A program made the position numbers and the translations under genes. 47,605 nt of DNA from Promethearchaeota archaeon (GTDB lineage Archaea > Asgardarchaeota > Lokiarchaeia > Sigyniarchaeales > SOKP01), in contig JAFGGO010000045.1 in NCBI GenBank assembly GCA_016930515.1, positions 1 through 47,605 of the forward strand, given 5' to 3'. Below are positions 9,532 to 47,605 of the stretch, in pieces. The first letter of the stretch is position 1, and each line of letters opens with the position of its first letter. Under the pieces are notes generated by a model. The model had not been told where the DNA came from and did not search any database. It worked only from the letters and a program-made list of their open reading frames with translations.

Positions 9532-11862
9532 TTAATTGCTCTCAATATCCATGTTTTGCATATCAAGCAGGTGCTTATATACACCATTGGGAATGGCAAG
9601 GAGTTCATCGTGGGTTCCTTTTTCAATGAATCCCTTGGCCTCTTTATCCACGACAAGAATAAGATCTGCGTTTCTAATCGTGGAAAGCCTGTGAGCAATA
9701 ATGATAGTCGTGCGACCTTTTCGAGCTTTATTTAAAGCATCTTGAATCAATGTCTCCGTGTAAGGATCGACGGAAGAGGTTGCCTCGTCCAGAATAAGGA
9801 TTTTAGGATCGGTTATGAGTGCTCTAGCAAATGCGATGAGTTGCCTTTGGCCGATAGAAATATTAGATGCGTTTTCGTGAAGGATAGTTTCAAAACCTTC
9901 TGGTTGGGACATGATGAAATTATATAAACCAAGAAATTTCGAAATATCCAACATTTTACGTTCGATTTCATCATCAATAGCATCCAAACCATAAAGAAGG
10001 TTTTCCCTAATAGTGCCCTTGAATAAAAACGAATCTTGAGGTACTAATCCGATATTTTTTCGAAGGTCGTTTTTTGTAATATCTCGAATATCATTGCCAT
10101 CAATAGCGATTTTTCCTTTATTCACATCGTAAAAACGAGCAATTAATTTTATCATTGTTGTTTTTCCCGCTCCAGTTTCTCCGACAATAGCAATTGTATT
10201 ACCCCCTTCAATTGAAAGATCAAGATTTTTTAATATGAATCCTATCGAATTTTCGTGTTCAATCATAACTCTCTCTTCTTCAATACAATCTTGCACCATT
10301 TTTGGGAAAGAATTAAATTCTTCTTTTGGGATAGAAAGTTGGGCGATCATTCTGGCGAGCTGTCGCGATTTCATTTCATCGGGAGATCCCATTTGGCCCA
10401 TACTCGCACCACCTTCACCAGAGGGTGCCCTATTGCTTGCAGGAGACTTTTGAAGTGATTCCCTACGAACTAGTGATTTTTCTAGTTTATTAATAATGCT
10501 CTCAACCAATTGTGGGTTATAATCAATTTTTGATTGAAAACCATTCTTTAAACTACCATTCATTGCGGAAACAGTTTGGAATTTCGACCATCTTGCTTTA
10601 TTGGTTGATTTGTTCAAATGGATTTTCTTTTTTGCGTTATTTTTTTCGTCATATATGAAATTCTTCAATTCAGTATTCAAATTATCGAGTCTATATCCGA
10701 AACTTACATCCTGGAACCTTATGTTTCCCTTAATGTCTTTAAGTAAAATAAGATTAGCAGGATCGGGCAAATCGGTTGTTTCTTCTAGTATTCCATAGAT
10801 CCTATCAGAAGCCGCCATTGCAGATTCTATAATATTTTGAATTTGCATTAATGTCATAAACGGTTGAAAAAATTGAGAAAGATATGTTATAAAAGCCGAA
10901 AGAATTCCAATCGAAACGATCGTTCCAAAAAAATTGATCCCATTAATGTAAGCAAAACCCCCTAAAGTTAAGATTGAAGCCGTAAGAATTTGAGTGGTGA
11001 GCTGCATGAGAGGAAAGAAAGTTGAGAAGGTTTTTCTAACCTTAAAGTTTGCTTGATAATTTTCTTCGTTTGCCTTAGTGAATTCTTGGCTCGCTTTATC
11101 CGCTTGGTTGTAGGCTTGTATGACTTTCGCTCCAGCTACATTTTCTTGAATTGAAGTAGTAACTTTACTGATTGTCTTACGAGTCTCTTTAAAATCGCCA
11201 CTTACCTTTTTTTTGAAAAGCTTGAAGAAACCAAGAAAAAGTGGGAAGGCTATCATGCTAAATGCGGCTAAAAGCACATTAGCTATAAACATGAATGATA
11301 TACTAAGCCCAAGAGCGATCACGCTCGTTATTATTTGGGTTATTTGCCCCGAGACTAATAAATTCACTTGATCGACATCATTCGTTAAAATTGAAATTAT
11401 TTCTCCACTGCGCTTGCGATCAAAATACGCCATTGACATTGTTTGGAGTTTATCAAATAGATCATTTCGGATTCCATAGGTTATATCCTGTCCAAGCTTG
11501 TTTATACCAAAAGTGCCGAAATAATTAGCAAATATGACGCATATCATCAAGGAGGAATATAAAATACTCATGTATAATATGATAATGGGATCTCTACCGA
11601 TAATTCCTTGATTTATTAAAAACGCAATTAACAAGGGATTAGCAGAAAACACGATCGTGCCAAATATGATGAAAAGAAAATAAAAAGCGAATTTTCGCTT
11701 TTGAGGGAGCAAGTAAGAAAAAATCCAACGCCAAAGAATTCCTCGCGAATGTTCTATCTTAGCCTTTTCTCCAAATAAATGTGGAGGGCCTCGTTGACCC
11801 GCATGATGCACTTTAATTACTGGTTCTTCTGGAATTTCTTTCTTTTTTTTAAGTTCGCTGAT
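9532..11862 (-). CDS. ABC exporter half-transporter (TMD+NBD), consensus-site subunit, with a ~150-aa NBD insertion
   Basis: GETGAGKT, LDEATS, IAHRLS, signature ISIGQ. The ORF track starts at GTG 11811; an SD-spaced in-frame ATC at 11862 is proposed as the start. Confidence 0.9.
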   Translation of the reverse strand: MSELKKKKEIPEEPVIKVHHAGQRGPPHLFGEKAKIEHSRGILWRWIFSYLLPQKRKFAFYFLFIIFGTIVFSANPLLIAFLINQGIIGRDPIIILYMSILYSSLMICVIFANYFGTFGINKLGQDITYGIRNDLFDKLQTMSMAYFDRKRSGEIISILTNDVDQVNLLVSGQITQIITSVIALGLSISFMFIANVLLAAFSMIAFPLFLGFFKLFKKKVSGDFKETRKTISKVTTSIQENVAGAKVIQAYNQADKASQEFTKANEENYQANFKVRKTFSTFFPLMQLTTQILTASILTLGGFAYINGINFFGTIVSIGILSAFITYLSQFFQPFMTLMQIQNIIESAMAASDRIYGILEETTDLPDPANLILLKDIKGNIRFQDVSFGYRLDNLNTELKNFIYDEKNNAKKKIHLNKSTNKARWSKFQTVSAMNGSLKNGFQSKIDYNPQLVESIINKLEKSLVRRESLQKSPASNRAPSGEGGASMGQMGSPDEMKSRQLARMIAQLSIPKEEFNSFPKMVQDCIEEERVMIEHENSIGFILKNLDLSIEGGNTIAIVGETGAGKTTMIKLIARFYDVNKGKIAIDGNDIRDITKNDLRKNIGLVPQDSFLFKGTIRENLLYGLDAIDDEIERKMLDISKFLGLYNFIMSQPEGFETILHENASNISIGQRQLIAFARALITDPKILILDEATSSVDPYTETLIQDALNKARKGRTTIIIAHRLSTIRNADLILVVDKEAKGFIEKGTHDELLAIPNGVYKHLLDMQNMDIESN

Positions 11863-11886
11863 AATTATTTCACTTGTTTTTATAAT

Positions 11887-13665
11887 TTAAAGCGATTTAA
11901 TGTCCTTTTTTTGTTTTAATTGAAGAGTTTCAAAAATTTGGCGATATAAGGGATTTGCGTTTCCATTTTTACCATTATATAACTCATCGTGAGTTCCAAG
12001 ACCAACAATGCGACCTTTATCTAATACCATAATTACATCAGCATTTCTAATTGTTGATATGCGCTGGGTAATGATAAAAGTTGTTGTATTTTTCATTACT
12101 CTCTCGAGTGCTTGTTGTATTTGATATTCCGTTTCTACATCGACGCTACTTGTAGAATCGTCTAATATCAAGATTTTAGGTTCAATAAGAAGTGCTCGTG
12201 CGATGGATAACCTTTGTTTTTGACCACCAGAAAGGTTCATTCCCCTCTCTCCGACCATTGTTTCGTACTTTTCAGGGAGGTTTTCAATAAAATCTCTAAT
12301 GCCCGCAATTTCTGCAACATTTTCGATGTTCTCCATATTCGCGGAGTCTTTCCCAAAAGCTATATTTTGCTTGATTGATTTATCGAATAAATATGTGTCT
12401 TGAGACACAATTCCGATGTGTCTCCTAAGATTGTTAATTTTATATTTACGAACATCGATTTTGTCGATTAGTATCCTTCCCTTCTTTACATCGTAAAATC
12501 TTGGTAATAAATTGATGATAGTAGATTTTCCCGAGCCAGTAGTACCAAGAATGGCAACTTTCTGACCAGGAGAGATATGAAAATTCATATCATTTAAGAT
12601 AAGATTCGTTTGAGTATATCCAAACGAGACGTGGTCAAAAACAATGTCTCCGTTTATTGATTCTTTTGTAATGGGATTTGGATCCTCAAGAATATCTGGA
12701 GTAGATTCAAGAACTTCGCGTATGCGATTAAGCGCGGCATCAGCTTGAACATACATTATAAAAATGTTGCCCAACATTACTAAGGGAAAGATCGCCATGG
12801 CAATATAACTTTGAAATGTAATAAGAAGCGCCAAAGACATTTCGCTATTGAGAATAAGAGCCCCACCAAAATATAGTGTTAAAATAATCATCAATCCCAA
12901 GAGCAGGATATTTAAAGGCATAAAAAAACTGTTATATTTCGCAGAGAGTATAGATATATCGCGAAACCTCATATTATTCTCTGAAAATTTCTTAAATTCC
13001 TTTTTTTGGGTGCCAAACATTCGCACTACTTGCGCACCTACGATATTTTCTCGTATCGTATTAGTCAAATCCCCAAATGCTTCCCGGCTTTCTTTATAAA
13101 TTGGCTTGAGTTTTTTCGTAATAAAAAGGGACCCAATCACGGAAAGTGGAATGCAAATTGTCAAGATCCAAGCGAGATTGGGTTGAACAGACCATGTAGC
13201 AATATTGACACCTATCAGTTGTAAAACACCCATAATGCCCAATACCAGCCCCATACCGAATATTCCTTCTGTTTGTTCGACATCCGAAGTAGCTCGTGCA
13301 ATTAATTGACCCGTTTCGTATTTATCAAAATAACTGTAAGATTGTCTATAAATAGCGCCGTGAATATCCTGTCGAATATAGAATATGGCTCTAGCTGCGA
13401 TTTTTGCGCCTGAAATACGGGCACCACGACTAATAAAATAAGCAACAACACCAAGAATGGTGATAATGATTAAATTAATAATCAAGTTAAATTGAGTGGC
13501 TTGTTGTTCCTTTGGAAGATTTGGATCTAGTTGCCCTACTAAATTTCCAATAAATATTGGAATGAATAGTCCAAATATGGTGGCAATCATTTGAAATAAA
13601 ACATATTTCACAAAACGCTTTCGAGAGTAAAGCCAGTATTTAAAAATCATGTGCAATGAATTCAT
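11887..13665 (-). CDS. ABC exporter half-transporter, degenerate-site subunit (TM287/288-type heterodimer)
   Basis: GTTGSGKS, LSGGQ, degenerate Walker B LDDSTS and switch TQR; ATG 13665 follows GGAAGTAA. Confidence 0.9.
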   Translation of the reverse strand: MNSLHMIFKYWLYSRKRFVKYVLFQMIATIFGLFIPIFIGNLVGQLDPNLPKEQQATQFNLIINLIIITILGVVAYFISRGARISGAKIAARAIFYIRQDIHGAIYRQSYSYFDKYETGQLIARATSDVEQTEGIFGMGLVLGIMGVLQLIGVNIATWSVQPNLAWILTICIPLSVIGSLFITKKLKPIYKESREAFGDLTNTIRENIVGAQVVRMFGTQKKEFKKFSENNMRFRDISILSAKYNSFFMPLNILLLGLMIILTLYFGGALILNSEMSLALLITFQSYIAMAIFPLVMLGNIFIMYVQADAALNRIREVLESTPDILEDPNPITKESINGDIVFDHVSFGYTQTNLILNDMNFHISPGQKVAILGTTGSGKSTIINLLPRFYDVKKGRILIDKIDVRKYKINNLRRHIGIVSQDTYLFDKSIKQNIAFGKDSANMENIENVAEIAGIRDFIENLPEKYETMVGERGMNLSGGQKQRLSIARALLIEPKILILDDSTSSVDVETEYQIQQALERVMKNTTTFIITQRISTIRNADVIMVLDKGRIVGLGTHDELYNGKNGNANPLYRQIFETLQLKQKKDIKSL

Positions 13666-13734
13666 TAAATTACTTCCAATTAATCTTATAACTATGTATT
13701 CAAAATTATGATTCACAGATAAAATTAATTGCTA

Positions 13735-14598
13735 TCATTCATAAGAATCGTTTTTAGCATTTCTGAAAAATAAATCTGGCGTCAATTCTGCCTCTGGAAC
13801 AAATGAATATTTCTGGAATTCTGTTATTCCCCCCTCTTTAAGAACATCCTCGTCTATGAAGAAATTCCCCGTAAATTCACGACTTGATTTGGTTATAATC
13901 ATATACGCCGCATCAGCAACGATTTCTGGTTTTCTCGAGTGTTTCATTGCTGTTTCCCCACCTAATAAGTTTTTTACAGCAGAAGTAGCAATAGTTGTCT
14001 TAGGCCATAGAGCGTTTACACCAATACCAAACCTTTTAAATTCCTCTGCTAATCCCAAAACGCACATGGACATTCCAAATTTTGACATTGTGTAAGCCAA
14101 CGAACTTGCAAACCAAGTAGGTTCCATCACGAGTGGTGGCGATAGAACCAAAATATGTGGATTATCAGATCTTTTCAAATGGGGAATGCATAATTTAGAA
14201 CAGAGAAAAGTACCCCTAACATTTATATCAAACATTAAATCAAAACGCTTCATAGATGTTCCTAAGGTAGGGGTTAGGCTAATGGCACTTGCGTTGTTTA
14301 CGAGAACATCTATTTTTCCAAATTTCTTAATTGTTGCATCAATGGCTTGTTGTAATTGGTCTTCAAAACGAATGTCAACTATACATGGAATAGCATCACC
14401 ACCCACACTCTTAATATCCTCTACGGCAGTAAATACAGTACCTGGAAGTTTTGGATGTGGTTCGCTCGTTTTTCCAATAACCGCAATCTTGGCCCCATCT
14501 CTTGCACATCTCATGGCAATCGCTTTTCCTATTCCCCTACTAGCCCCTGTTATAAATATAACCTTGTTTTTTAAGCTGATGATTATCTCACCTCGCAT
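13735..14598 (-). CDS. Short-chain dehydrogenase, HSDL2-like
   Basis: ITGASRGIG, EPHPKLPGTV, NNASAI, YTMSK, VNALWP; probable true start ATC at 14580 (MSLKNK). Confidence 0.9.
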   Translation of the reverse strand: MRGEIIISLKNKVIFITGASRGIGKAIAMRCARDGAKIAVIGKTSEPHPKLPGTVFTAVEDIKSVGGDAIPCIVDIRFEDQLQQAIDATIKKFGKIDVLVNNASAISLTPTLGTSMKRFDLMFDINVRGTFLCSKLCIPHLKRSDNPHILVLSPPLVMEPTWFASSLAYTMSKFGMSMCVLGLAEEFKRFGIGVNALWPKTTIATSAVKNLLGGETAMKHSRKPEIVADAAYMIITKSSREFTGNFFIDEDVLKEGGITEFQKYSFVPEAELTPDLFFRNAKNDSYE

Positions 14599-16091: not shown

Positions 16092-16499
16092 TCACAATAA
16101 ACTTTTGAGATTTATTCTAAATGATTCGAACTTGGTTTTTAACTCTATGCGTAATAAGTTATAAACCGATTTTAATACAAAAATGAAAAGAAAATAATTT
16201 AGAAAAAACCAAGAATCAAAATAAATTCAGCCCACCTCATTCGATTAGATTTTTTAGCTTGTTTTTCTAGTTTTATCAGAAATAACTAAATTTAGATTTT
16301 CGAAAAATCCAAGAACAAATATAACAATTAAATAGTACAATTAAGTAGATACTTTTCTATTTGTTTTTCTCCATAATATTCCTTGATAGGCATAGAATTG
16401 TCAGTTTTTATTGATAAATAATTTAATTTTGTTATGATTTTCTATTTATTTCAGAAATATGAATTATTGTTGCGACTTCCTATAAGTCCCGTGAAAAAA

Positions 16500-16515
16500 G
16501 GGAAAGACTTAAATA
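16500..16515 (+). promoter_or_regulatory. Putative archaeal BRE/TATA promoter
   Basis: Purine-rich GGGAAAGA followed by TTAAATA, about 115 nt upstream of the gene. Confidence 0.45.
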
Positions 16516-16630
16516 TTGAAATTGTTATTAGAATAATGACAAGCTGAATGCAGGGGATGCATATCAGATACAAGCAGTATTACCCTAAAATCATTCAGAT
16601 AATTTATTTTTATAAGGATGTGACTTAAAA

Positions 16631-17806
16631 ATTACTCAAAATGTTTTCTTACTTGATGAACTTAAATACGACGCTCAAAGCGTGAATGTTACTTGTCCTA
16701 TTTGTCAAAAGAAAAAAAAATTTTATTTACCTCGAAACATTCTGAAAAAAAACGGTTTGACAACAATATCCATTCCTAAGGATACGGTCTGCACTCATCA
16801 TTTTCAAGCTTTCATTGATAAAGATCTGCAAGTACGTGGATATCAAAAAGTTGATTTTGAATTGCTTGGAGATTTTGATTCTACTTCTTTTCAATGCCAA
16901 CTATGTAACGCAGATATTAATTTCAAATTAAGCGATGAGAGTACCTATCTTAGCAAGGAGATCTTCCAACATTTCTTGGGTACTGAACTGTACTCAATCA
17001 AAGTTGCCCATTATAGCAATAACGAGTTACATGTTAATACTGTATTGGTAGAAGAAGATGGCACTATAAATAACATTTTAAATTCACATTCCGTTAAACT
17101 AGAGAATTACGAAAACAAGGAACTTATAGATCTGAAATTTTTCAAATTCAGCGAAGATAATCACAACATACTTGAAAAACACCCATTATTTGATTTATTT
17201 GTATTGTTTAATGTTTTCGATAATTGGATTTACGAACTTGTTTGCTTACCGGTCTTTAACTCCCTAGAACTCATCAACATTGTTCATAAAAAAATCCAAG
17301 AAGCAATAAGCATATATTCAAAAATTCCTTCTTACTTGAGTGTTTCGATCGCTGACAAGATTTTTCACTTATGGATAGATCAATCTAATGTTATTTGCGT
17401 GAATCTAAGAAACGAGCTTAACTTTCAATGGTTTAATCCTCTTGTCTCCGAATTTATTGATAGGGCTACTATGGAAGGAACATTGATTTCGAATTGTCCA
17501 AGATTTCTTTTAATTAGTGATTTTTTTCAAGGAAATCTGATTCCAGAAAATAAAATAACCATGATTAAAAGATTAATTAACGACGATCTTCTCTATTCAA
17601 GCGTGAGAGTTAAATATCCAGATCGAATTGAACGCATTTCAAATAAATTAATTGCGGAGTTTGGCATTTCAAAATCTTTTATTCTTGGATTTTTTTATCA
17701 AGACAAGAATATCATAGATTTCATTAAACTATCTGAAAAAAAGGATAAATTTGAAGATTTCATTGAAATGATCGATTACATAAATAGAAGAAAATTATTA
17801 GAATAA
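16631..17806 (+). CDS. Hypothetical protein with two N-terminal Cys/His zinc-finger-like modules
   Basis: CPIC...CTHHFQAFID...VRGYQKVDFE and CQLC...H...H; the ORF track starts at GTG 16682; SD-spaced ATT at 16631. Confidence 0.7.
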   Translation: MTQNVFLLDELKYDAQSVNVTCPICQKKKKFYLPRNILKKNGLTTISIPKDTVCTHHFQAFIDKDLQVRGYQKVDFELLGDFDSTSFQCQLCNADINFKLSDESTYLSKEIFQHFLGTELYSIKVAHYSNNELHVNTVLVEEDGTINNILNSHSVKLENYENKELIDLKFFKFSEDNHNILEKHPLFDLFVLFNVFDNWIYELVCLPVFNSLELINIVHKKIQEAISIYSKIPSYLSVSIADKIFHLWIDQSNVICVNLRNELNFQWFNPLVSEFIDRATMEGTLISNCPRFLLISDFFQGNLIPENKITMIKRLINDDLLYSSVRVKYPDRIERISNKLIAEFGISKSFILGFFYQDKNIIDFIKLSEKKDKFEDFIEMIDYINRRKLLE

Positions 17807-17832
17807 AAATTTAAAATAGAGGTGAGAAGAAC

Positions 17833-18867
17833 ACGAAAGGAAGAATAAAAGCGTGGTCAGAATTGTTGAAGCTTGGATTTGCAAGTAAGCTTAGCAAGGA
17901 AACCAACTTGTTTTATAAGAATATCGTTGTCGAAGTATTGCAAAGGGAAGGGTGGTTTTCTTTTCTTGAAGAACCAAGAAGCCTCGAAGATATTGCTAAC
18001 AAATTTGATTATACCGACAAGGATTACTTAAAAGAAATTCTTGATGCTTTATTATCGGATGATACGATTACTTTTAAGGAAGATAGGTATAAAACAAATG
18101 GAGCTATCGATATAGTGGATGTAAAACCACAAATATTTAACGAGTCTATAATGGATTACTCGAGAGGGTATGCGAAATCTATTCCCGAAAGACTCCGGGG
18201 TAAATATCATTTGGTCACCACGGGCTATAACCTATTTAACATGGATGATGCATTATCCCTTCAAATGTATAAAACAATGAGGAGAAGTGCCTTCGCTTTT
18301 GGGAATGTCGTTAACTTAAAAGGTAAATTCCTCGATATTGGCTGTGGGAACGGTATTGGGACGGCAGACATCTGGACCTTGTACTTCGAAAACAACTATT
18401 TCAATCACCATAAACAAATAGAAATTTATGGTATTGATGTTAACAGCGACATGTTAAAAATTGCAGAAGAAGAGTTTCCATTAAAGATTAAAAACATTCT
18501 ATCGCTTTCCAACGAGGCGATTAAGCAATACGAAGGAAAATTTCCAAAACTTAAGGAAGGAACGGCAATTGAAATCCCTTTCGAAGACAATTATTTTGAC
18601 ATCGTCTACATCTCTCAAGTATTACATTGGACGGATCCAAGAAAAGCCATAAAAGAGATGTATCGCGTTGTAAAACCTGGAGGAATAGTCTTTGGAACAT
18701 CGATTCTAAGACCAATGGCAAACGAATATCTCCACGTGAATATGAAAACAGTGCAAGGCGCTCACGGATTTTTCACCAAAAAAGAAATGAAGACATGGAT
18801 AAAGGAAGCGGGCTTTAAAGAAATGTCGTTTTCGACACCCTTAACGATTTTCAAATTAGTGAAATAA
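17833..18867 (+). CDS. Class I SAM-dependent methyltransferase with N-terminal wHTH/dimerisation domain
   Basis: FLDIGCGNG, GIDVN, PFEDNYFD, EMYRVVKPGG; the ORF track starts at TTG 17863; SD GAGGTGA + 7 nt + ACG at 17833. Confidence 0.9.
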   Translation, partial: TKGRIKAWSELLKLGFASKLSKETNLFYKNIVVEVLQREGWFSFLEEPRSLEDIANKFDYTDKDYLKEILDALLSDDTITFKEDRYKTNGAIDIVDVKPQIFNESIMDYSRGYAKSIPERLRGKYHLVTTGYNLFNMDDALSLQMYKTMRRSAFAFGNVVNLKGKFLDIGCGNGIGTADIWTLYFENNYFNHHKQIEIYGIDVNSDMLKIAEEEFPLKIKNILSLSNEAIKQYEGKFPKLKEGTAIEIPFEDNYFDIVYISQVLHWTDPRKAIKEMYRVVKPGGIVFGTSILRPMANEYLHVNMKTVQGAHGFFTKKEMKTWIKEAGFKEMSFSTPLTIFKLVK

Positions 18868-20141: not shown

Positions 20142-20168
20142 TAATTAAATTCTTAAATTAGAAACACC

Positions 20169-26608: not shown

Positions 26609-27847
26609 TTATTCCTCCTTAATTTTTATTTTTGTGATTACGCCTTTTGAATCGATTCCAAATTCTATTCTTCCATTTTTATAATTTCCTTCGAAAATCT
26701 CAAATGATTGAGATTTATACTCTTCAAAATCATTCAATTCTCCAACAGGCGTTTTAAAACCACCAAAAAATACATTAGACAAGTTCATATTACCCGCAAT
26801 CCTCCTTATTTCGCTTGTTATATTTTCGTATTTATTAGCGTCCTGATCTTTCATTGCGGTTTTAAGTTGATTTTCTAAGTTCTTAAGGTCTTTTCTATAT
26901 TGAACAGTTTTTTCACTCACATCAATTCCAGTTCCTTTTTCATAAGCTTCAATTAAACTCAATGTCAGGGATATGGCGTTTTCTCCACCTAAAAGACCAG
27001 TTATTAATGGAGCTTCTTCGATTAACCTGTCAACGAAAATATCTTCTAAGACACTCCCCTTTGAAGGAATTTTTCCTTTTGGTAGTCCAGATGTTGGGAG
27101 CGTGAATCGGAAGAAATTTCCGACCACATCTGGGAGACTTTCAGTTACATCGTCATCTTCGTCGGATAATTTATCTGTTGCCCCGTATTTTGAAGCTTCG
27201 GTTGCAACTTCTACATTCCCCATAAGCGTTCCAAACATCCCAAGCATTCTAATGCCCGAGCGCGGAACCATCGGCTTGCACCCTCGACATTGTGTTCCAT
27301 AATCTATACATCTTTCCTTGCATTCAGTCGAAACATATCCATTGCAGAGAAAACCTTGATCGTTAAAGCACATTTCTTCGTCTTCAAATGGATCGATTTG
27401 TCTCTTGACTTCGTCCAGAAATTCACAAGTGGATTTTCGCTTGCAAGATTGACACAATGCTTTCAATTTAGGCTTCTCTTCTCCCTTAATTTCTGATTTT
27501 AATTCCTCGACTTCGGCAAGACATCCATTTATCTTTGTAGTACCTTCAAAATATTTATCTATTGGTGTTATGCTCCATCCTTTTTGATTTGCAAGTCCAA
27601 AAACGCCTCCTGTTGTGGTACAATCTCCATATGCAATAATTTGCTTAGCGCTCGAACCAATCTTCGATATTTTTTCTTTATCTTCTGGCAGCAAATATCC
27701 ACACACGATGGCCACATCAATTTTTTCTTCTTTCCAATTTCTCGGATTTTGAACGAGTTCTAATTGTATCGACGAATCTTTTTTCAATAAGAGAGTTTCA
27801 TTGAAACATTTCTTGCAACCGTTAAATTGAAACGCTTTAACTTTCAT
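26609..27847 (-). CDS. MvhG/VhuG-like Fe-S subunit fused to a vestigial NiFe large-subunit (MvhA-like) segment
   Basis: GCKKC, YGDCTTTGG, NGC, LCQSC, CFNDQGFLCNG..C...C......CRGC; C-terminal region IEEAPLITG...GGFKTP; ATG 27847 overlaps the mvhD stop. Confidence 0.8.
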   Translation of the reverse strand: MKVKAFQFNGCKKCFNETLLLKKDSSIQLELVQNPRNWKEEKIDVAIVCGYLLPEDKEKISKIGSSAKQIIAYGDCTTTGGVFGLANQKGWSITPIDKYFEGTTKINGCLAEVEELKSEIKGEEKPKLKALCQSCKRKSTCEFLDEVKRQIDPFEDEEMCFNDQGFLCNGYVSTECKERCIDYGTQCRGCKPMVPRSGIRMLGMFGTLMGNVEVATEASKYGATDKLSDEDDDVTESLPDVVGNFFRFTLPTSGLPKGKIPSKGSVLEDIFVDRLIEEAPLITGLLGGENAISLTLSLIEAYEKGTGIDVSEKTVQYRKDLKNLENQLKTAMKDQDANKYENITSEIRRIAGNMNLSNVFFGGFKTPVGELNDFEEYKSQSFEIFEGNYKNGRIEFGIDSKGVITKIKIKEE

Positions 27848-28280
27848 TTTCAAACTTTCCTCCGTCATTAATTGCTGCACACAATCGTTCCACGATATCA
27901 TCAAAATCTCCAACCGCCGTTTCACCTTCTGCGGCTCTTGAAGTATATTGATTCACGAATTGATCGCTATACCCTAATTCCTTAAAAAGTTTTTTCATTA
28001 TTTTTATCCTGCGCATTGCTATGAAATTCCCATTAAAAAAATGACAGGCGCCTAAGCAACACCCCACGCAAGCAACGGAATCTGCACCATTATTTAGCGC
28101 ATCCATTATCTGTATTGGACCAACTTGACCCGTACATTGAACTCTTACGATTCTGATCGCAGGATCGTATTCCATCCTTCCAACCCCTGCAGTATTTGCA
28201 GAGCCTTGACCACATTCATTGCACATAAATACGACAATATTTTCATATCCTTCACATTTGGCAGCTTCACATTCATTCAT
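27837..28280 (-). CDS. mvhD: MvhD/FlpD [2Fe-2S] subunit
   Basis: FMCNEC, IRIVRVQCTG, GADSV..VGCCLGACHF.NGN; SD GGAGGTG upstream of ATG 28280. Confidence 0.92.
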   Translation of the reverse strand: MNECEAAKCEGYENIVVFMCNECGQGSANTAGVGRMEYDPAIRIVRVQCTGQVGPIQIMDALNNGADSVACVGCCLGACHFFNGNFIAMRRIKIMKKLFKELGYSDQFVNQYTSRAAEGETAVGDFDDIVERLCAAINDGGKFENES

Positions 28281-30294
28281 TACAAACAACACCTCCACCA
28301 GATATTGGAATGATCTCGTAAAGCAGTTGGTCGTCGCTAAAATTAAGCAATTGTATGGCACCAACAGGACACGCAGGCATACACATCCCACATGATTTAC
28401 AAGCAACTTCGTTAATCACGGGTCTTCCATTATCGTTCCATTTAATTGCAGACGGATTACATGCTGTAATACACATTCCACAATCTACGCATAATTCATA
28501 ATCGATTGAAGGAATTAGCATTTCCTTTTCGATGTATCCTTTTACTAAATGCTGAGAGGCAAGAGCAGCAGCATTGCCAGCATGTGCCACGGATTCGGAT
28601 ATATCCTTGGGACCTTGAATGGCACCTGCCAAGTAAATCCCGCCTTTGCTACTTGCCGTTGGATTCATCTTGATGTGAAATTCTTTAAAGAATCCTTCTT
28701 TTGAGCGTAGAATTTGAAGTTTTGATCCAAGCGGCCCTATTCCTTGAGGAGGAACCATGGCTGCCGACAAAACAACTAAATCAGCTTTAAGTCTTAATGG
28801 GATTTGGCTTAAAGTATCCTCTACGATGACATGTAAGTCACCAGATATAGGATCCTTTAATATCTCAGATGGTCGACCTCTTATAAATCGCACTCCTTTT
28901 TCTTGGGCACTCATGTAATATTCTTCAAAGTTTAATCCTGGTGTCCGCATATCAATATAACAAATTGTTACATCAGCATCGGGATACATGTCTTTTACGA
29001 TTCCGGCGTTTTTAGTAGCGAATTTACAACAAACTCCAGTGCAATATTTATTTCCAACCTGTTCGTTTCGACTTCCAACACATTGAATCATTACAATCTT
29101 TTTCGGAATTTTTCCGTCCGATGGTCTCATTACCTCGCTTCCCGTCATAGTAGTGGGTCCAAGCATTCTTTCCAATTGTAACTGAGTAATGACATCATCG
29201 TATCCTACTTTTCCATAATGATAAGCTTCGATCTCGCTCGGATCGTACTCTTCGTATCCAACGGCTACGACTATTGATCCAACCTTGAAACTTTTTATTT
29301 CTGGTTTCTCGGAGAAATCAATAGCTTGAACCGGACAAATATTAATGCAAGTATTGCATTCAATGCAATCCTTTTTGGAACGAACAAAAGTTGAAGGAAT
29401 GGCCTGGGGATAAGCCTTATATATCGCAGTGCGCGTTGACATTCCCTTGTCCCATTCTGATAGTACTTCCACAGGACAATTAGCAGCACATTCTCCACAT
29501 GAAGTACAGTTATCCTTCACATATCGTGGTTTAATTTCGATTTCAACTTCAAAATTGCCCATCGAACCTTCAACACTCTTGATTTGAGAATTTGTAAAAA
29601 GCTGTATTAGAGGATGATTAGCAACGCCGTTTGTTAACGGGGAGATGCTACATTGTGGACATTCGTTCGTTGGAAATGTTTTGTTCAACCTCGTCATATG
29701 GCCCCCTATTGTCGACTCCCTCTCGACTAAATAGACGGGAATTCCTAATTCGGCCATATCGTAAGCAGCTCGTAGACCAGCAATTCCAGCACCTACGACC
29801 AAAGCCGCTTTTGTTGTTGGAATTTTTTTCGTCTCTACTTCTTTTAACTTTCGAGCTCGATTTATTCCTGCCTCAACCATTTTCATTGCCTTGTTGGTTG
29901 CCTTATCTTTTTCTTTATTATGAACCCAACTGCAAAACTCTCTAATATTTACTTGTTGATGCAAGTGCTTGTTTAAACCCATTTCTTCGATGGCTTTGGC
30001 AAAAGTTCTTCCGTGTTGATTTTTTGAACAGGAAGCAACCACCGATTTATTCACGCCTTTTTCTTTTATGGCTTCTTTTAATAATTCAACTCCAGGTTTG
30101 GAACACATGAACATATAATGCTTTGCTTCCACTACATTAGGTAAAGTTCCTGCATATTCAGCAACCTTCTCAACATCAACAGTTCCTGCAATATTATGAC
30201 CACAATGACATACAAACACACCAATCCTAGGTTCTTCTTCACCTTCTGCTTGTTTTTCGATTTTTGCTTTTATCTCATTTTTTTTAACAACCAT
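28273..30294 (-). CDS. hdrA: Heterodisulfide reductase subunit A
   Basis: RIGVFVCHCG.NIAG, NIREFCSWVH, GAGIAG, KTFPTNEC..C, IQCVGSR...YCTGVCC, GPKDI, C-terminal ferredoxin motifs. Confidence 0.97.
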   Translation of the reverse strand: MVVKKNEIKAKIEKQAEGEEEPRIGVFVCHCGHNIAGTVDVEKVAEYAGTLPNVVEAKHYMFMCSKPGVELLKEAIKEKGVNKSVVASCSKNQHGRTFAKAIEEMGLNKHLHQQVNIREFCSWVHNKEKDKATNKAMKMVEAGINRARKLKEVETKKIPTTKAALVVGAGIAGLRAAYDMAELGIPVYLVERESTIGGHMTRLNKTFPTNECPQCSISPLTNGVANHPLIQLFTNSQIKSVEGSMGNFEVEIEIKPRYVKDNCTSCGECAANCPVEVLSEWDKGMSTRTAIYKAYPQAIPSTFVRSKKDCIECNTCINICPVQAIDFSEKPEIKSFKVGSIVVAVGYEEYDPSEIEAYHYGKVGYDDVITQLQLERMLGPTTMTGSEVMRPSDGKIPKKIVMIQCVGSRNEQVGNKYCTGVCCKFATKNAGIVKDMYPDADVTICYIDMRTPGLNFEEYYMSAQEKGVRFIRGRPSEILKDPISGDLHVIVEDTLSQIPLRLKADLVVLSAAMVPPQGIGPLGSKLQILRSKEGFFKEFHIKMNPTASSKGGIYLAGAIQGPKDISESVAHAGNAAALASQHLVKGYIEKEMLIPSIDYELCVDCGMCITACNPSAIKWNDNGRPVINEVACKSCGMCMPACPVGAIQLLNFSDDQLLYEIIPISGGGVVCNE

Positions 30295-39578: not shown

Positions 39579-39796
39579 GATAAATCCATCCTTATTATCT
39601 TACTTGTTTTATTTCTATTTAAAGGATTCTTTAATCAAAATTTAAGGACCTTTAAATAATTTAAATTCATTTAAGATGAGTATTATACAATTAAGTATGA
39701 AAATGGTTTTTTAATTAAAATTATTCTCCTTTTGAAGTATTAAATGAACAATGTTCTCATACTAAGTACTAAAATTTTCATAAATTCTTTCTTTTT

Positions 39797-41134: not shown

Positions 41135-41137
41135 TTA

Positions 41138-42280: not shown

Positions 42281-42376
42281 TGTATAATATCATTTGAAAA
42301 GTTTAGTGATAAAGGGGATAATAATTCAAAAAATTTATTATTATTACTACTATTAAAATGAATAAAAGTCAAGAGC

Positions 42377-43153
42377 TTATTTGCTTTTATTATCTTGAGC
42401 TATGAGAGCCGCACCTATAGCTCCAGTGAGTTGTGGTTGTTCTGGTGTCACGATACTAAAGCCTAATTCTTCTTCAAGATATTGCTTTACCGCAACATTT
42501 TTCGCAACTCCACCGCAAAAAACCAGTAATGGACAAACACCTATACGCTTTGCCATTCCTGCAACCCTTCGCGCAATCGATTTGTGGATACCACTCGCAA
42601 TGTCTTGTTTCGAAGTACCACGAGCAAAGAGCGATATAACCTCACTTTCAGCAAAAACAGTACAAGTAGAGCTTATTGATGCGGGAGAATTGGATTTTAA
42701 GGCCAAAGATCCTATATCCTCAATTGATACTTCCAATGCGTGTGCCATGACTTCGAGAAAACGCCCTGTTCCTGCTGCGCACTTATCGTTCATTTGAAAG
42801 TCAATGACATTGCCAGTTTTTTTTGACATTACAATCGCCTTGCTGTCTTGGCCACCAATATCTATAACCGAAGCTGCTTCAGGATAAAAGAATTGCACCC
42901 CTTTTGCGTGAGCGGTTATTTCCGTTATTCGATCGTCAGCAATATCGATGGAATTTCTTCCGTATCCAGTAGACATCACATAAACATCGCTTCTTTTGAG
43001 ATTATTTTTTTCTAAAAGATCTTTAAATAGATCTCCTCCAATTCGCTTGAAATCGTAAGTCGATCTATCAACACGATGATCGACTAGTTTTCTGCCATCC
43101 ATCAAAACAAGCTTGCTCGCTAGCGAGCCAATATCTATTCCTACGCTTAACAT
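42377..43153 (-). CDS. CoA-substrate-specific enzyme activase (HgdC/BadG-type ATP-dependent activator)
   Basis: GIDIGS, TGYGR, IDIGGQDSK, MNDKCAAGTGRFLE, STCTVFAESE, GGVAKN. Confidence 0.95.
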   Translation of the reverse strand: MLSVGIDIGSLASKLVLMDGRKLVDHRVDRSTYDFKRIGGDLFKDLLEKNNLKRSDVYVMSTGYGRNSIDIADDRITEITAHAKGVQFFYPEAASVIDIGGQDSKAIVMSKKTGNVIDFQMNDKCAAGTGRFLEVMAHALEVSIEDIGSLALKSNSPASISSTCTVFAESEVISLFARGTSKQDIASGIHKSIARRVAGMAKRIGVCPLLVFCGGVAKNVAVKQYLEEELGFSIVTPEQPQLTGAIGAALIAQDNKSK

Positions 43154-43379
43154 TTGTTTGACACTAAATACTTAATTTTCTTTATCAGTAATCGTTTATT
43201 CATTAAATATTCAAAAAGTATTAAACTTGTTGTAATGAATATTCTATAGTTTTTCGTTCTTTCAAAAATCTAATAATTTTTAATCAATGATCTCGTTGAG
43301 ATTTTTAATATCCACATTTGGAAATATTAAATATAAGTTGAATAAAAATATGGATGTTTTTATCGTTTTAAGCTGTAAA

Positions 43380-44125
43380 TTACCCTAAAAATATAATTAT
43401 GATCACCATGGTTAACACAAAAGCAAAAAGCATCTGTAATATATTTTTTATTATGGACTCTTTTGAAATTCTTCCAAGAAAAATCCCCAATAATACGATA
43501 GACAATACAATTATAATGAACGATACTATGAATATTATCACGCTAGCACTGGCAACTATGAAGAAAGGAATTAACGGAACTAGTCCTCCTAAAAACGGGG
43601 ATCCTCCATTTACAATGGCCACGATGATTCCCGCAAAGCTTTCAGCCTTGTGATGAAGTGTTTTTATTTTTCTTTCTTTTTTCTCCTTCTTCTGAGAAAG
43701 GGTTAGTTTTACGGGCTTCAACATTGCTTTTTCAATCTCGTTAGCTTGTAGGTCAATGTCAATTCTCTCCTCCGCTTCCTCTTCTCGTTCCACGATTCCC
43801 ATTGCTTTTTGTAAATCGGCTTCACTTTTTTTTTGTTCTGCTCTTTCGGATAAATAAGACCCAGATAAGCCAGATATGAACATTGAAATAGCCGTTCCTA
43901 ATCCAGTTAATATCACATAAGCCGAAGGTATAGTTGGTTGGGTGGGATCTTTAAGTACGACGACAAAGAATCCCAATAATATTCCTAATACTGTTAGGTT
44001 TATGGTTAATAGAGAGAATTCTCACATCAATTTCCATCGTAAAAATTATTGATAAAATACCTTCGAGCCACTGCTGAGTAATCGGTTATTTCGTTATAAA
44101 TTCTTAATTTTTTTATAAATGACAT
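43380..44125 (-). CDS. VIT1/CCC1-family (archaeal TIGR00267-like) Fe/Mn transporter, split into exon 1 (44125-44032) and exon 2 (43999-43380); 237 aa if spliced
   Basis: Exon 1 reads MSFIKKLRIYNEITDYSAVARRYFINNFYDG; exon 2 continues LTVLGILLG...AISMFISGLSGSYLSERAE...GGLVPLIPF, typical VIT1 motifs. Confidence 0.85.
44000..44031 (-). other. Putative 32-nt bulge-helix-bulge (BHB) intron in a protein-coding gene
   Basis: Central 4-bp helix ATGG/CCAT, a 3-nt AAA bulge on each strand, inner helix TTGAT/ATTAA capped by GAG-AATT-CTC, outer helix TTACG/CCTAA; canonical excision gives in-frame GAT GGA AAC CTA. Confidence 0.8.
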
Positions 44126-44305
44126 TTTTAATTAAAAATATGATGACTTTAAATTCAATTAATTTGGATAGGATAAAAATCTTATTAAAGCGGATTTTAT
44201 GTAAGACAGGTGTTATTTAAAAATTTTTATAACTTAACTCATAAAAACTATTATTTTTATTGGTCTTTTTGTATATTATATATAAAATTAAAAAATCTGT
44301 TAATA

Positions 44306-44938
44306 ATGAACAAATTCAAAGAACAATTGATAACGATGCTCATCGAGCATTCAAGGATCATTTATTCCGTTATAAGCGAAATGGGAGTATATTACTCGAA
44401 TTGGGCGGAAAATGGCCAAGAAGAAGCTGAAAACTTGGAAAAAAAGCAAAATAAAATACAATTATTGGAAGAAGACGGAGATAGCATAAAGATACGCTTG
44501 ATCAAAGAGTTTTCGGAAGCGGGAGCACAAGGACTAGGAGGATATGTGGAACTCCTTCTAAAGATGGACAACCTAGTTAATTCAGCGATAGAATTCGTTG
44601 AAGCAATTAGTCATATTAGTGCAAAAATAAATGAAGAAATTAAAAGTCGCTATCATAAGTTAATAAATACTATAATCGAAATGGCAGATGTTTTAAAAGC
44701 TACGATAAAAAGTTTAAGAGATAAACCCGAAATCGTGTTTAAAAATACGACAAAGATTCACGAAATGGAAAATAATATTGATAAAATATTTCGGGAATTT
44801 ATGAATTACATTTACGATGACAAGGCATTGGACATCAGATTGCTTCTGAGAATTCGAGATAGTATCATTATTTTAGAAGAATTGGCGGATCGAATGCATG
44901 ATATAGCCGATCTCATTCGCGTTCTCGTTTATCAATAA
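44306..44938 (+). CDS. DUF47 / PhoU-like helical-repeat protein
   Basis: IQLLEEDGDSIK...MDNL and IHEMENNIDKI...LEELADRMHDIAD repeats; ATG 44306 preferred over upstream GTG. Confidence 0.85.
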   Translation: MNKFKEQLITMLIEHSRIIYSVISEMGVYYSNWAENGQEEAENLEKKQNKIQLLEEDGDSIKIRLIKEFSEAGAQGLGGYVELLLKMDNLVNSAIEFVEAISHISAKINEEIKSRYHKLINTIIEMADVLKATIKSLRDKPEIVFKNTTKIHEMENNIDKIFREFMNYIYDDKALDIRLLLRIRDSIIILEELADRMHDIADLIRVLVYQ

Positions 44939-45117
44939 GAAGAAATTATACAATATTCTTTTTTAATGCGTTTTTTTCAAATCATAAGACATAGATTTTT
45001 TAAATTAAATTTTATGAACTTATTATGCATTTTTCTCTTATTTTTCGTAGTAACCTTTTTACGGAATTTTTTCTTTTATTTATTTAAATTACAATACTTT
45101 TAGAAAATGAAAGCATC

Positions 45118-45462
45118 ATGAATACAAAAAGAAAATTTGGAATATCGATCCTATTGCTTCAAATATTGCTAGTGGTTTTAGTTTATCTAACGGTCGATAA
45201 ATTTATTACACCCGTAGCTGCCCAAACAACCCAAACTGATTCAGGAACATCAATGGCTTTAGCCATCTCTGCTGGTTTATCAATAGGGTTATCAGCTATT
45301 GGTTCGGGCTTAGCTTTAAAGACCGTTGCTACAGCGGCCGTTTCTGCAATAACGGAACGAGAAGGTGCATTTGGAAAAATCTTAGTATTAGTAGCTTTGG
45401 CTGAAACCTTGGCGATTTATGGATTAATTGTTAGCATCTTGCTTTGGACAAAAATTCCTTGA
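45118..45462 (+). CDS. atpK: A/V-type ATP synthase proteolipid subunit K (c)
   Basis: AGLSIGLSAIGSG...LVALAETLAIYGLIVSILL; extra N-terminal hydrophobic segment. Confidence 0.92.
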   Translation: MNTKRKFGISILLLQILLVVLVYLTVDKFITPVAAQTTQTDSGTSMALAISAGLSIGLSAIGSGLALKTVATAAVSAITEREGAFGKILVLVALAETLAIYGLIVSILLWTKIP

Positions 45463-45520
45463 TCAATCTTCAAGTTAAATTAAAAACAATTAAAGAATTT
45501 ATTAGCGGGGTTTAAAGAAA

Positions 45521-46579
45521 ACGAGCATCATAATTCCAAGCTATGCCTATACTCATGTCAAGATTGGATTTTTCAAGCAATTAATCATGGATGAGACCTC
45601 GCTTTTAAAACTTCGAAAAATAAGAGATGGACAAGAATTTATTGATTTTATAAAGCCTTTTTATCCGACTTTAGAAATAAAAGATTTGATCATTGAAGAA
45701 TTAGAAAGGGCAGTTTATAATGCATATATTAAAATTATTGGTAAATTAATGCATGTCTCACCACCTAACATGCGTAATTTTCTTAGAACTTATCTTTATA
45801 AATATGAGATTTTGAATATCAAGGAAATAATTCTTGGATCTATTGTTGGAATGAGTGCTAAAGAAAAATCAAAAAATATCAATTTTTTAATAGAAGAATA
45901 CCTTGAAAATACGAAATTTATTAAAGATCTTATCAAAATTCAAAGCTTAGAAGAAATACAATTGTTTTTGAAAGGTACTAAATACGGAAAAGTTGTAAAA
46001 GAAGGCATCTTATATTACCGTAATACAAACGAAGTTTTTGTATTAGAAGCATTTTTGGATCGTTTATATTATGAGATGCTAATAACCGAAAAACTTCTCT
46101 ATAATAGAAAAGAAAGCGAAATCATTAACACATTCATCGATTTTGCAATAGAAATATATAATCTTAAAGTGATTTATCGAGGCGTTATCAATAAAATTGA
46201 TAAGAATTTATTACGTCAACTTATTGTTGGGAACTATTTTTTCTTAGATAGAGAAAAAATTGAAGTATTAATAGCACAGAAAAATATTGATGAATTTTTA
46301 AAACAATTCGAATTTTTCCTACGAAAATCGATTCATATAAAATATCTGTTAGATCAAATTAATATACGACGAGAACATTTTGTATGGTCTGTTGAGGCTT
46401 TATACTCAGAATTTATAATGAAAAAATTTCATATGAATAGAGGAGATATTGCACAATCAACGATATACAGAATAATTGAGTTGATAATAAAAAAAGAAAA
46501 AGAAATTCGATTTGCGATTCTTCCAACTGTGATTAATATCTTTCACGAAAAATACGAAAAAATGGAATCTAGAGGATAG
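45521..46579 (+). CDS. atpC: A/V-type ATP synthase subunit C (d)
   Basis: YAY-type N-terminus upstream of the first ATG (45587), KYEILNIK, GTKY, LEAFLDRLYY, EIYNLK; proposed ACG start at 45521. Confidence 0.85.
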   Translation, partial: TSIIIPSYAYTHVKIGFFKQLIMDETSLLKLRKIRDGQEFIDFIKPFYPTLEIKDLIIEELERAVYNAYIKIIGKLMHVSPPNMRNFLRTYLYKYEILNIKEIILGSIVGMSAKEKSKNINFLIEEYLENTKFIKDLIKIQSLEEIQLFLKGTKYGKVVKEGILYYRNTNEVFVLEAFLDRLYYEMLITEKLLYNRKESEIINTFIDFAIEIYNLKVIYRGVINKIDKNLLRQLIVGNYFFLDREKIEVLIAQKNIDEFLKQFEFFLRKSIHIKYLLDQINIRREHFVWSVEALYSEFIMKKFHMNRGDIAQSTIYRIIELIIKKEKEIRFAILPTVINIFHEKYEKMESRG

Positions 46580-46593
46580 AGGGATATAAAAAC

Positions 46594-46911
46594 ATGGATA
46601 TATTCAATTGGGTTGATGAAATTGAGAAAGTATATCAAGAACTAGTTGATAAAGCTAGGCTTGAAAACCAGGTAGAAATTGAGAATTATCAAAAACAACA
46701 GAAAGAGATGTTAAAAACAATACATGATAAAAACGACGAATTTATAAAATCAAATATCGATTCGCTCTTAGAAGAATTAAAACAGGGTGTGCAAATTTTT
46801 GATAATCAAATAATAAAAGCCCTTGAAGATATCAAGCAAGAATATCAAAAACAAAAAAAAATAGTGATTAATAACATTATTCATAAGCTTGGATTTGATT
46901 TTAATGGTTGA
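46594..46911 (+). CDS. Probable A-type ATP synthase peripheral-stalk subunit H/G
   Basis: 105-aa charged helical protein inside the ATP synthase operon. Confidence 0.65.
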   Translation: MDIFNWVDEIEKVYQELVDKARLENQVEIENYQKQQKEMLKTIHDKNDEFIKSNIDSLLEELKQGVQIFDNQIIKALEDIKQEYQKQKKIVINNIIHKLGFDFNG

Positions 46912-47224
46912 TCAAGAAATACACGTTATAGGAACCGACGATCTCGTCATTTTATTTGGATTAATTGGAGTTAATGGTACTATCATTAAAGAAGAATCTG
47001 AATTTTTACCACTTTTCAAGGATTTAACTGAAAGACCTTCAATAGGGATGATAATAGTTGCATTCGATTTAACTCAACAATTGGTGGAATTTATAGTAGA
47101 TTTCAAACTAAATAATAGAACTCCATTTATATACTATTTACCAGACATATTTAAACCTAATATTGAGATAAATGATGCGTTCTGGAACCATATCACGACT
47201 TCAATTAAAAAATTAATTATATAG
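46904..47224 (+). CDS. atpF: A/V-type ATP synthase subunit F
   Basis: IHVIGTDDLVILFGLIG, IGMIIV, YLPD. Confidence 0.88.
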   Translation: MVDQEIHVIGTDDLVILFGLIGVNGTIIKEESEFLPLFKDLTERPSIGMIIVAFDLTQQLVEFIVDFKLNNRTPFIYYLPDIFKPNIEINDAFWNHITTSIKKLII

Positions 47225-47237
47225 GAGGGGAGAACAC

Positions 47238-47605
47238 ATTACTGACGATAAAAATTTAAAAGAGAACTTTGGAAATCTTGGAATTTACATGATAGATCAA
47301 GCAAAAAACGAGATCAGAGAATTAAATCAAAAAACATTATTTCAAAAAGCAGAAATTAAAAAAAAATATAGAGAAGAATTAGTCCTTGATATCCAGAAAT
47401 CTCGGGATTATTTTGAAGAATATGCAAATGAAATTCTCAATAACTCCTTATCTACAACTCTTATAGAAATGAATCAAAAATTTCTTGATTTAAAATTAAA
47501 ATTAGTTAAAGAACTAAACGATAGCGTTGTTAACGAGTTAGAGAAGAAAATTAAAGAAAATTACGATAATTATATTACATTTCTTATTGATAATATAAGA
47601 AATCA
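47238..47605 (+). CDS. atpE: A/V-type ATP synthase subunit E, partial (runs off the window end)
   Basis: Open frame (I/M)TDDKNLKENFGNLGIYMIDQAKNEIRE..., long charged helix after atpF; SD GGAGGGG then ATT. Confidence 0.7.
   Translation, partial: MTDDKNLKENFGNLGIYMIDQAKNEIRELNQKTLFQKAEIKKKYREELVLDIQKSRDYFEEYANEILNNSLSTTLIEMNQKFLDLKLKLVKELNDSVVNELEKKIKENYDNYITFLIDNIRN

Follow-up and report, generated by a model that had tools for sequence, protein, structure and literature searches.

Bacterial infC, which encodes initiation factor IF3, begins at an AUU codon and is translationally autoregulated, and E. coli pcnB likewise starts at AUU. NCBI translation table 11 lists ATT, ATC and ATA as initiators; ACG is not in this table. 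In eukaryotes, Met-tRNAi reads ACG, CUG, AUU and other near-cognate codons, and eIF1 autoregulates its own synthesis via a poor start context. Plant organelles provide a further route, in which an ACG is converted to an AUG start by C-to-U RNA editing. For archaea, AUG, GUG and UUG are the accepted start codons (review, PMC7531240), and Sulfolobus aIF1 is cited in PMC6237735 as discriminating against non-canonical starts. In ribosome profiling of Haloferax, near-cognate codons made up about 30% of the putative sites of alternative initiation (PMC7261190), a hint that archaeal ribosomes can occupy such codons. In these archaeal reports, near-cognate codons were either regarded as rejected or set aside as possible false positives (PMC7531240, PMC6237735, PMC7261190). 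No paper on a near-cognate start habit in Asgard archaea was found by literature search.

We examined a window of 47,605 nt (the whole stretch of DNA that was analyzed; contig JAFGGO010000045.1, assembly GCA_016930515.1) from a Promethearchaeota archaeon (Lokiarchaeia, Sigyniarchaeales, SOKP01). A preliminary description of this DNA had listed seven genes in which a Shine-Dalgarno (SD)-like motif is followed by an in-frame ATC, ATT, ATA or ACG, and had proposed a relaxed use of start codons that is missed by gene callers. The motifs, spacings, codons and second codons of all seven sites were found as described, as was the ATG gene given for comparison (AGGTGA-7-ATG at 5651). Near-cognate sites were compared to the homologous positions of 30 related genomes, where genome counts are not independent observations because the relatives share phylogeny. 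By this approach, four of the seven sites were found to be strong (atpC, a second ATPase-operon gene, a Zn-ribbon gene and a methyltransferase gene), with ATG, TTG or the identical near-cognate codon at the homologous position of relatives and with conserved residues encoded before any canonical start is reached. Two others (SDR and hdrC) have canonical alternatives nearby, which the preliminary description had overlooked, and the ABC transporter site is weak. The near-cognate codon is homologous to the ATG of orthologues in the four strong genes, hdrC and SDR. Based on these comparisons and on the genome-wide statistics below, we put the probability at about 85% that translation really starts at near-cognate codons in this organism, clearly so at ACG and AUU and less often at AUA and AUC.

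The gene for A-type ATPase subunit C (atpC, PF01992; 45521 to 46579, forward strand) has a candidate ACG start at 45521 to 45523, which is separated by 7 nt from an SD-like GGGGTTT (45507 to 45513) and is followed by a conserved SxIxPSYAYT motif. As previously claimed, there is no ATG, GTG or TTG between the in-frame TAG at 45503 and the first ATG at 45587, and a start called at this ATG would cost the protein 22 residues. Of 17 family genomes, 13 (from 9 genera) have ACG at the homologous position, three have ATG and one has TTG; in the sister family, ATG was found at this position in 3 genomes. Stop codons are located 1 to 3 codons upstream of the start in three genomes (L038, L042 and L043). 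The ACG was also retained while nearby synonymous sites changed, and ACG represents only 24% of Thr codons. Downstream of atpF in the same operon, a gene that is cut by the contig end (47238 to 47605, forward strand) has a candidate ATT start (47238 to 47240) positioned 6 nt after GAGGGGA (47225 to 47231). The start-site coordinates given for this gene stood, and its earlier name of atpE did not, as the protein (about 245 amino acids in relatives) had no match to any Pfam or NCBIfam family. The start codon was ATT in 13 of 18 family genomes, with ATC, GTG, TTG and ATG each in single genomes, and a TAA is located immediately 5' of the ATT in genome L120. A conserved FGxLGxY motif is encoded 5' of the first ATG (47289), and 17 residues would be lost from the protein without the near-cognate start.

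The remaining strong sites are within neighboring genes of the forward strand. The SAM methyltransferase gene (17833 to 18867) has a candidate ACG start (17833 to 17835) at a spacing of 7 nt from GAGGTGA (17819 to 17825), and a conserved AW motif precedes its first canonical codon, TTG at 17863. Homologues of this gene have ATG (G005), ATC (G003) or ATA (G004) at the same position, with GAGGTGA ahead of the ACG, ATC and ATA and GGTGA ahead of the ATG. Similarly, the Zn-ribbon gene (16631 to 17806) has a candidate ATT start (16631 to 16633) that is 7 nt from GATGTGA (16617 to 16623), with a conserved NxFLLDE..YDAQ stretch encoded 5' of the first canonical GTG (16682). A paralogue on another contig of the same genome (C186) also has ATT at this position, both copies of G005 have ATG, and G003 and G004 have TTG. 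Thus, the proposed check of whether orthologues have ATG at the same positions returned ATG in relatives, for example for atpC, the methyltransferase gene and the Zn-ribbon gene.

An alternative explanation is that initiation occurs only at the nearest ATG, GTG or TTG, such that the SD-led near-cognate codons are coincidental or reside in untranslated leaders. This explanation fits best the three window genes that have a usable canonical codon nearby. For hdrC (TIGR03290; 31216 to 31773, reverse strand), the candidate ATA (31773 to 31771) is positioned 5 nt from GGAGTTGG (31786 to 31779), and an in-frame TTG (31782 to 31780) is found three codons upstream, within the SD-like motif itself. ATA was conserved in 5 of 5 genomes of the genus, ATG was at the same position in other genera, and an ACG immediately following TGA TAA was detected in G015. 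The hdrC start is considered ambiguous, since in every ATA-bearing genome (all five members of the genus) a GTG or TTG is also in frame three codons upstream. For the short-chain dehydrogenase gene (SDR; 13735 to 14580, reverse strand), the candidate is one of two consecutive ATC codons (14583 or 14580) downstream of GAGGTGA (14594 to 14588; GAGGTGA-7-ATC at 14580), and an in-frame ATG (14598 to 14596) is present six codons upstream with no intervening stop. This ATG is 5' of the SD, is formed from the Glu-Cys codons that end the preceding gene, and is cut off from the SDR gene by a stop codon in three sister genomes; orthologues have ATG where the ATC pair is located. This site is likewise graded as ambiguous. 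The ABC transporter gene (TMD-NBD; 9532 to 11862, reverse strand) has a candidate ATC (11862 to 11860) in a run of ATA-ATT-ATC, 7 nt from a weak AAGTGA (11875 to 11870), with GTG at 11811 as the next canonical start. Its N-terminus is poorly conserved, and ATG was found in G001 and G017 about equally far from the RGP motif, making the near-cognate start plausible only.

By contrast, exclusive use of canonical codons is difficult to reconcile with atpC, the second ATPase-operon gene, the Zn-ribbon and methyltransferase genes and the gene encoding aIF1, each of which has an upstream in-frame stop, conserved N-terminal residues and no usable canonical start. In these genes the next canonical codon is 10 to 58 codons downstream, and its use would remove conserved residues. 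This explanation also leaves unaccounted for the ATG codons of relatives at the exact near-cognate position and a genome-wide enrichment that is specific to both codon and spacing, and we consider it improbable.

The genome-wide analysis used a home-made list of stop-to-stop ORFs and an empirical definition of the SD, as the assembly is without a 16S rRNA gene. When the first 30 in-frame codons were scored for an SD 5-mer at an aligned spacing of 5 to 8 nt, ATG was observed 229 times (34 expected) and GTG 51 times (13 expected). ACG was found at 35 such sites compared to 7 expected (P=4e-14), with the same spacing peak as GTG, and ATT at 55 compared to 30 expected (P=4e-5). ATC and ATA were not significant by this test in the genome of the window and reached significance only in a stricter test; the out-of-frame and internal controls were flat. 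The stricter test was restricted to orphan ORFs, which have no canonical start between the upstream stop and 10 codons past the candidate. Here, an SD at 5 to 8 nt preceded 40 of 974 near-cognate codons (ACG, ATT, ATA or ATC) compared to 34 of 5589 other codons (odds ratio of 7, P=3e-15). Each near-cognate codon was individually significant (ACG, 8/66; ATT, 16/413; ATA, 10/352; ATC, 6/143), AAG, AGG and CTG were not enriched in these ORFs, and control spacings of 0 to 3 and 11 to 14 nt were flat. The genome-wide count of codons behind SD motifs, which had been suggested as a check, thus revealed a pattern in excess of chance. Near-cognate starts would serve a few per cent of genes; among strongly SD-led starts, their share would be about 15% by rough count. 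Taken together, the ATG homology in relatives, the conservation of ACG and ATT across 9 genera and these statistics upheld the proposal of relaxed start-codon use.

The aIF1 gene (G000:C31:21089) is itself among the affected genes. Its 111 codons include no ATG, GTG or TTG before codon 58, and translation from the ATT assigned as its start gave a match to positions 2-101 of 102 of the SUI1 family profile NF002096. Canonical-only calling would leave a 54-residue C-terminal fragment, with the Zn knuckle and half of the SUI1 fold deleted. Within its own family, aIF1 starts at ATT or ATC in all surveyed genera except g8 (ATA), with ATT in almost every genome. The start is ATA, TTG or ATG in sister family f2, ATA in families f5 and f7, ATG in f4, and TTG in f6, where one genome possibly has ATG; class-wide, ATA, TTG or ATT is used and ATG is rare. 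The gene therefore begins at the codon type against which its product discriminates, similar to infC, in which a factor that rejects non-canonical starts is itself made from an AUU behind an SD. An altered initiator tRNA, earlier suggested as a cause, was not borne out, as the tRNAi (G000:C31:4088-4187) is canonical and has all initiator identity elements. It has A1:U72, a GGG/CCC anticodon stem and a CAU anticodon, and is interrupted after position 37 by an intron of 21 nt; its anticodon arm, GGGCTCATAACCC, is identical in 7 family genomes. For aIF1, the other factor that had been suggested, the ATT start of its gene points to the amount of the factor more than to an altered protein.

It could also be proposed that C-to-U deamination turns ACG into AUG in the mRNA, as in plant organelles, and that initiation is canonical. 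Like these organelles, the organism has genomic ACG at the start position of conserved genes; among non-canonical codons ACG has the strongest enrichment, its conservation as ACG is strict, and C-to-U editing is reported to occur in one archaeal tRNA (Methanopyrus CDAT8). Unlike in plant organelles, ATT, ATA and ATC are at the same homologous positions as ACG (in the methyltransferase family and hdrC), and the same tests show their enrichment, such that the effect is not limited to ACG. Neither an editing machinery nor edited transcripts are known for this organism, our literature search found no mRNA editing in archaea, and to our knowledge none has been described; we rate editing as even less likely than exclusive use of canonical codons. 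Least credible is that near-cognate codons function only by termination-reinitiation after an upstream operon gene with no general relaxation. Several window cases are indeed just 3' of such a gene: the candidate ATC of SDR shares nucleotides with the stop of the gene before it, and the ATT of the ATPase-operon gene is 13 nt past the atpF stop. Genome-wide, however, an upstream ORF on the same strand ends no more than 30 nt away for only 19% of strict near-cognate candidates compared to 50% of SD-led ATG starts, and AT-rich intergenic DNA precedes aIF1 and the Zn-ribbon gene.

We favor direct initiation at near-cognate codons, in which the codon would be brought into the P site by the SD duplex and would pair there, with one mismatch, to ordinary Met-tRNAi (CAU). 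The first residue of the protein would therefore be Met, and efficiency would be below that of AUG. The habit appears to be inherited throughout this Lokiarchaeia family, and its weak starts may set low expression, for instance of the single-copy rotor subunit C. Overall stringency may be set by aIF1, which would autoregulate because its own gene begins at AUU.

The machinery for such initiation is that of other archaea (aIF1, aIF1A, aIF2 and SD-led or leaderless mRNAs). Unlike in earlier archaeal reports, the near-cognates identified here by sequence comparison are conserved in an Asgard lineage as the probable primary starts of housekeeping genes. As in bacteria with infC and pcnB, further genes with AUU-type starts are scattered through the genome. 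In contrast to the bacterial AUU cases, ACG is about as frequent as GTG among strongly SD-led starts, and core genes, for example those for ATP synthase subunits, retain their unusual start codons from genus to genus. Also unlike infC, aIF1 is a homologue of eIF1/SUI1 that is unrelated to IF3, and its autoregulation is presumed. Eukaryotic near-cognate initiation is similar in its one-mismatch codons, in its use of the eIF1/aIF1 family and in its hierarchy, with ACG and AUU used and AAG and AGG not. It differs in that eukaryotes rely on scanning and Kozak context rather than on an SD duplex, in that CUG is not enriched here, and in that the near-cognate codons of this archaeon appear to be the sole start of main ORFs, not starts of uORFs or N-terminal extensions.

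Very probably, then, ATP-synthase subunits, aIF1 and other ordinary genes of this organism and its relatives begin at ACG, ATT, ATA or ATC after a ribosome-binding site, and standard gene finders therefore shorten these proteins. Callers limited to ATG, GTG and TTG would leave a few per cent of proteins truncated or mis-started in these genomes, with distorting effects on protein families, on predicted structures and on how eukaryotic signature proteins are compared for the archaea closest to eukaryotes. The conserved ACG and AUU starts of housekeeping genes, together with the near-cognate start of aIF1, suggest a graded start-codon stringency in Asgard archaea, which would resemble the autoregulation of eIF1 in eukaryotes and of IF3 in bacteria. 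We tentatively propose, at somewhat less than even odds, that Lokiarchaeia have a stringency circuit of this kind, in which aIF1 made from its own AUU, AUA or UUG start tunes an ACG/AUU/AUA/AUC regulon of a few per cent of the genome, including the ATP-synthase subunits. In that case, a tunable form of near-cognate initiation would be older than eukaryotes and present in their nearest archaeal lineage.

All seven arrangements of a Shine-Dalgarno-like (SD) motif, spacer and near-cognate codon (ACG, ATT, ATA or ATC) reported for the window in the preliminary description were found exactly as written there. Orthologues were sought in 30 relatives, of which 18 belong to the same family (13 genera) and the remaining 12 to three further families of the order, and the DNA was read at the aligned first codon of each. 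By this approach, an ATG was detected at the same position in some relatives for atpC, the ATPase-operon gene, the methyltransferase, the Zn-ribbon gene, hdrC and the SDR gene. The window is the complete 47.6-kb contig C94 of a 4.0-Mb genome (35% GC, 190 contigs, 94% complete) that contains A-type ATPase genes, hdrABC, intron-rich tRNAs and aIF1. Four actin-family genes are also present (contigs C111, C108, C130 and C148; top score 440 bits across the full Pfam Actin profile), and this gene content is consistent with an Asgard archaeon.

For atpC (45521), the aligned start was ACG in 13 of 17 family genomes (nine genera), ATG in three and TTG in one; three sister-family genomes had ATG. A stop (TAA, TAG or TGA) was located 1-3 codons upstream of this start in three genomes, and an S-x-I-x-P-S-Y-A-Y-T motif follows the start codon immediately. 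Selection acts on the ACG codon itself, since ACG represents only 24% of Thr codons and nearby synonymous sites vary. No solved structure was matched by atpC in a phmmer search. Peptide stretches predicted from ORFs extended to ACG or ATT codons include SIIIPSYAYT (atpC) and ITDDKNLKENFGNLG.

The ATPase-operon gene (47238) aligned to ATT in 13 of 18 genomes and to ATC, GTG, TTG and ATG in one each; a TAA directly precedes the ATT in one genome, and the first ATG of the window gene is preceded by a conserved FGxLGxY motif. The gene for the ATT-initiated protein follows atpF, and its product measures about 245 aa in relatives. It had been labeled atpE; neither Pfam nor NCBIfam gave a match. Two further proteins of the operon (44210-47605) were likewise without a family match, one of 242 aa (44210-44938) and one of 105 aa (46594-46911) with a faint likeness to V-ATPase G (E=0.024); all three are probably divergent stalk subunits.

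The aligned start of the methyltransferase (17833) was ACG in the window and ATG, ATC and ATA in the related genomes G005, G003 and G004, respectively, with GAGGTGA before the ACG, ATC and ATA copies and GGTGA before the ATG copy. Similarly, the Zn-ribbon gene (16631) had ATT in the window and in a paralogue of the same genome (contig C186), ATG twice in G005, and TTG in G003 and G004.

The starts proposed for hdrC and the SDR gene are ambiguous. For hdrC (31773), ATA was found in all five genus members and ATG in other genera, but an in-frame TTG (31782) three codons upstream had been overlooked; because an in-frame GTG or TTG occurs at -3 in every ATA genome, the ATA of the window is considered a candidate start only. 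An orthologue in genome G015 (locus L093, contig C37) has ACG behind GGTGA immediately 3' of two in-frame stops (TGA TAA); this is a clean case, lacking any alternative start upstream. Downstream of hdrA (28273-30294), two ORFs overlap in different frames (27837-28415 and 26609-27952, within 26609-30294 of the minus strand) and could stem from a gene that is recoded (Sec) or mis-started. For the SDR gene (14580), the ATG of orthologues aligns with two consecutive ATC codons of the window, but an in-frame ATG (14598), six codons upstream with no intervening stop, had been missed and is a candidate start; this ATG falls within the terminal Glu-Cys codons of the preceding gene, 5' of the SD. The ABC gene (11862), with an ATA-ATT-ATC run behind a weak AAGTGA, is only a plausible case because its N-terminus is poorly conserved.

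Enrichment was also examined across the genome. A raw tally of the codons following each GGTGA or GGAGG was dominated by in-frame Gly-Asp/Glu within genes and was replaced by start-zone tests on 3333 stop-to-stop ORFs that do not overlap and span 100 codons or more. Among reliable ATG starts, only about 12% were preceded by a 5-mer of GGAGGTGAT, with a peak at 5-7 nt aligned spacing. SD-led ATG genes were mostly operon-internal, with 50% located within 30 nt of the upstream gene vs 15% of genes lacking an SD. Over the first 30 codons in frame, ATG, GTG and TTG had a spacing peak at 5-8 nt, and the ACG peak was equally sharp. Once codons adjoining a canonical start (ATG, GTG or TTG) were excluded, observed counts exceeded expectation for ATG (229 vs 34; P=3e-107), GTG (51 vs 13; P=1.3e-15), ACG (35 vs 7; P=4e-14) and ATT (55 vs 30; P=4e-5); ATC and ATA were not significant in this test, and the out-of-frame and gene-internal controls had no spacing peak. 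A stricter test was restricted to ORFs lacking any canonical start between the upstream stop and a point 10 codons beyond the candidate. Here an SD at 5-8 nt preceded 40 of 974 near-cognate vs 34 of 5589 other codons (OR 7, P=3e-15), with ACG (8/66), ATT (16/413), ATA (10/352) and ATC (6/143) each significant and AAG, AGG and CTG not; at spacings of 0-3 and 11-14, near-cognate and other codons did not differ. By excess counts, ACG and ATT together account for very roughly 15% of the starts with a strong SD. In several window cases the SD is looser than the 5-mers counted, and the true share of genes with near-cognate starts is probably a few per cent. The assembly has no 16S rRNA gene from which the anti-SD could be read directly.

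The simplest account would be that Met-tRNAi pairs, with one mismatch, with a near-cognate codon positioned by the SD. RNA editing could supply a start at ACG, but ATT, ATA and ATC occupy the same positions and cannot be served by editing. Translational coupling to the upstream gene was rejected as the general cause, since only 19% of the strict candidates have an upstream ORF within 30 nt, vs 50% of SD-led ATG starts. Assembly error and pseudogenes were ruled out, with the same codons recurring in independent MAGs and frames intact.

Relaxed start-codon selection had earlier been linked, tentatively, to altered aIF1 or initiator-tRNA discrimination. ARAGORN (introns allowed or not) and the Rfam tRNA model returned 21-27 tRNAs in the genome and no tRNA-Met, and regex hunts for tRNA-Met found nothing; most tRNAs of this genome are probably hidden from the finders by introns. 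By BLAST with the tRNAi of a relative, the initiator tRNA was located on contig C31 (4088-4187), with a 21-nt intron after position 37 and an anticodon arm identical in seven family genomes. A changed tRNAi is not the cause, because A1:U72, three G-C pairs in the anticodon stem and the CAU anticodon are all kept. A regex for tRNA-Thr(CGU) or an initiator-like tRNA with a CGU anticodon gave no match in this genome, where most tRNAs carry introns.

Discrimination against non-canonical starts has been reported for Sulfolobus aIF1 (cited in PMC6237735). The single SUI1 (aIF1) gene, located outside the window (C31, 21080-21412), has no ATG, GTG or TTG before codon 58 of 111. An ATT (21089) is found four codons past an in-frame TGA and behind GGTTGTGA, and the protein read from it matches positions 2-101 of 102 of the SUI1 family profile NF002096. 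The aIF1 start was ATT or ATC in every genus surveyed of the family except g8 (ATA, in-frame GTG nearby), ATA, TTG or ATG in the sister family f2, ATA in f5 and f7, TTG in f6 (with a nearby ATG in one genome) and ATG in f4. Throughout the class, aIF1 starts are as a rule non-AUG (ATT, ATA, TTG). In bacterial infC and eukaryotic eIF1, too, the gene for the factor policing start codons has a weak start, and the weak start of aIF1 may similarly provide feedback on start-codon stringency.

In Haloferax ribosome profiling, about 30% of putative alternative sites were near-cognate and were set aside (PMC7261190). A literature search whose coverage excluded most subscription journals yielded no account of Asgard archaea with conserved ACG or AUU starts. 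Near-cognate initiation is known as rare in bacteria and regulated in eukaryotes; in this Asgard lineage it appears to be conserved and to include ACG, a reading supported on comparative grounds for four of the seven window genes and for the genome overall.
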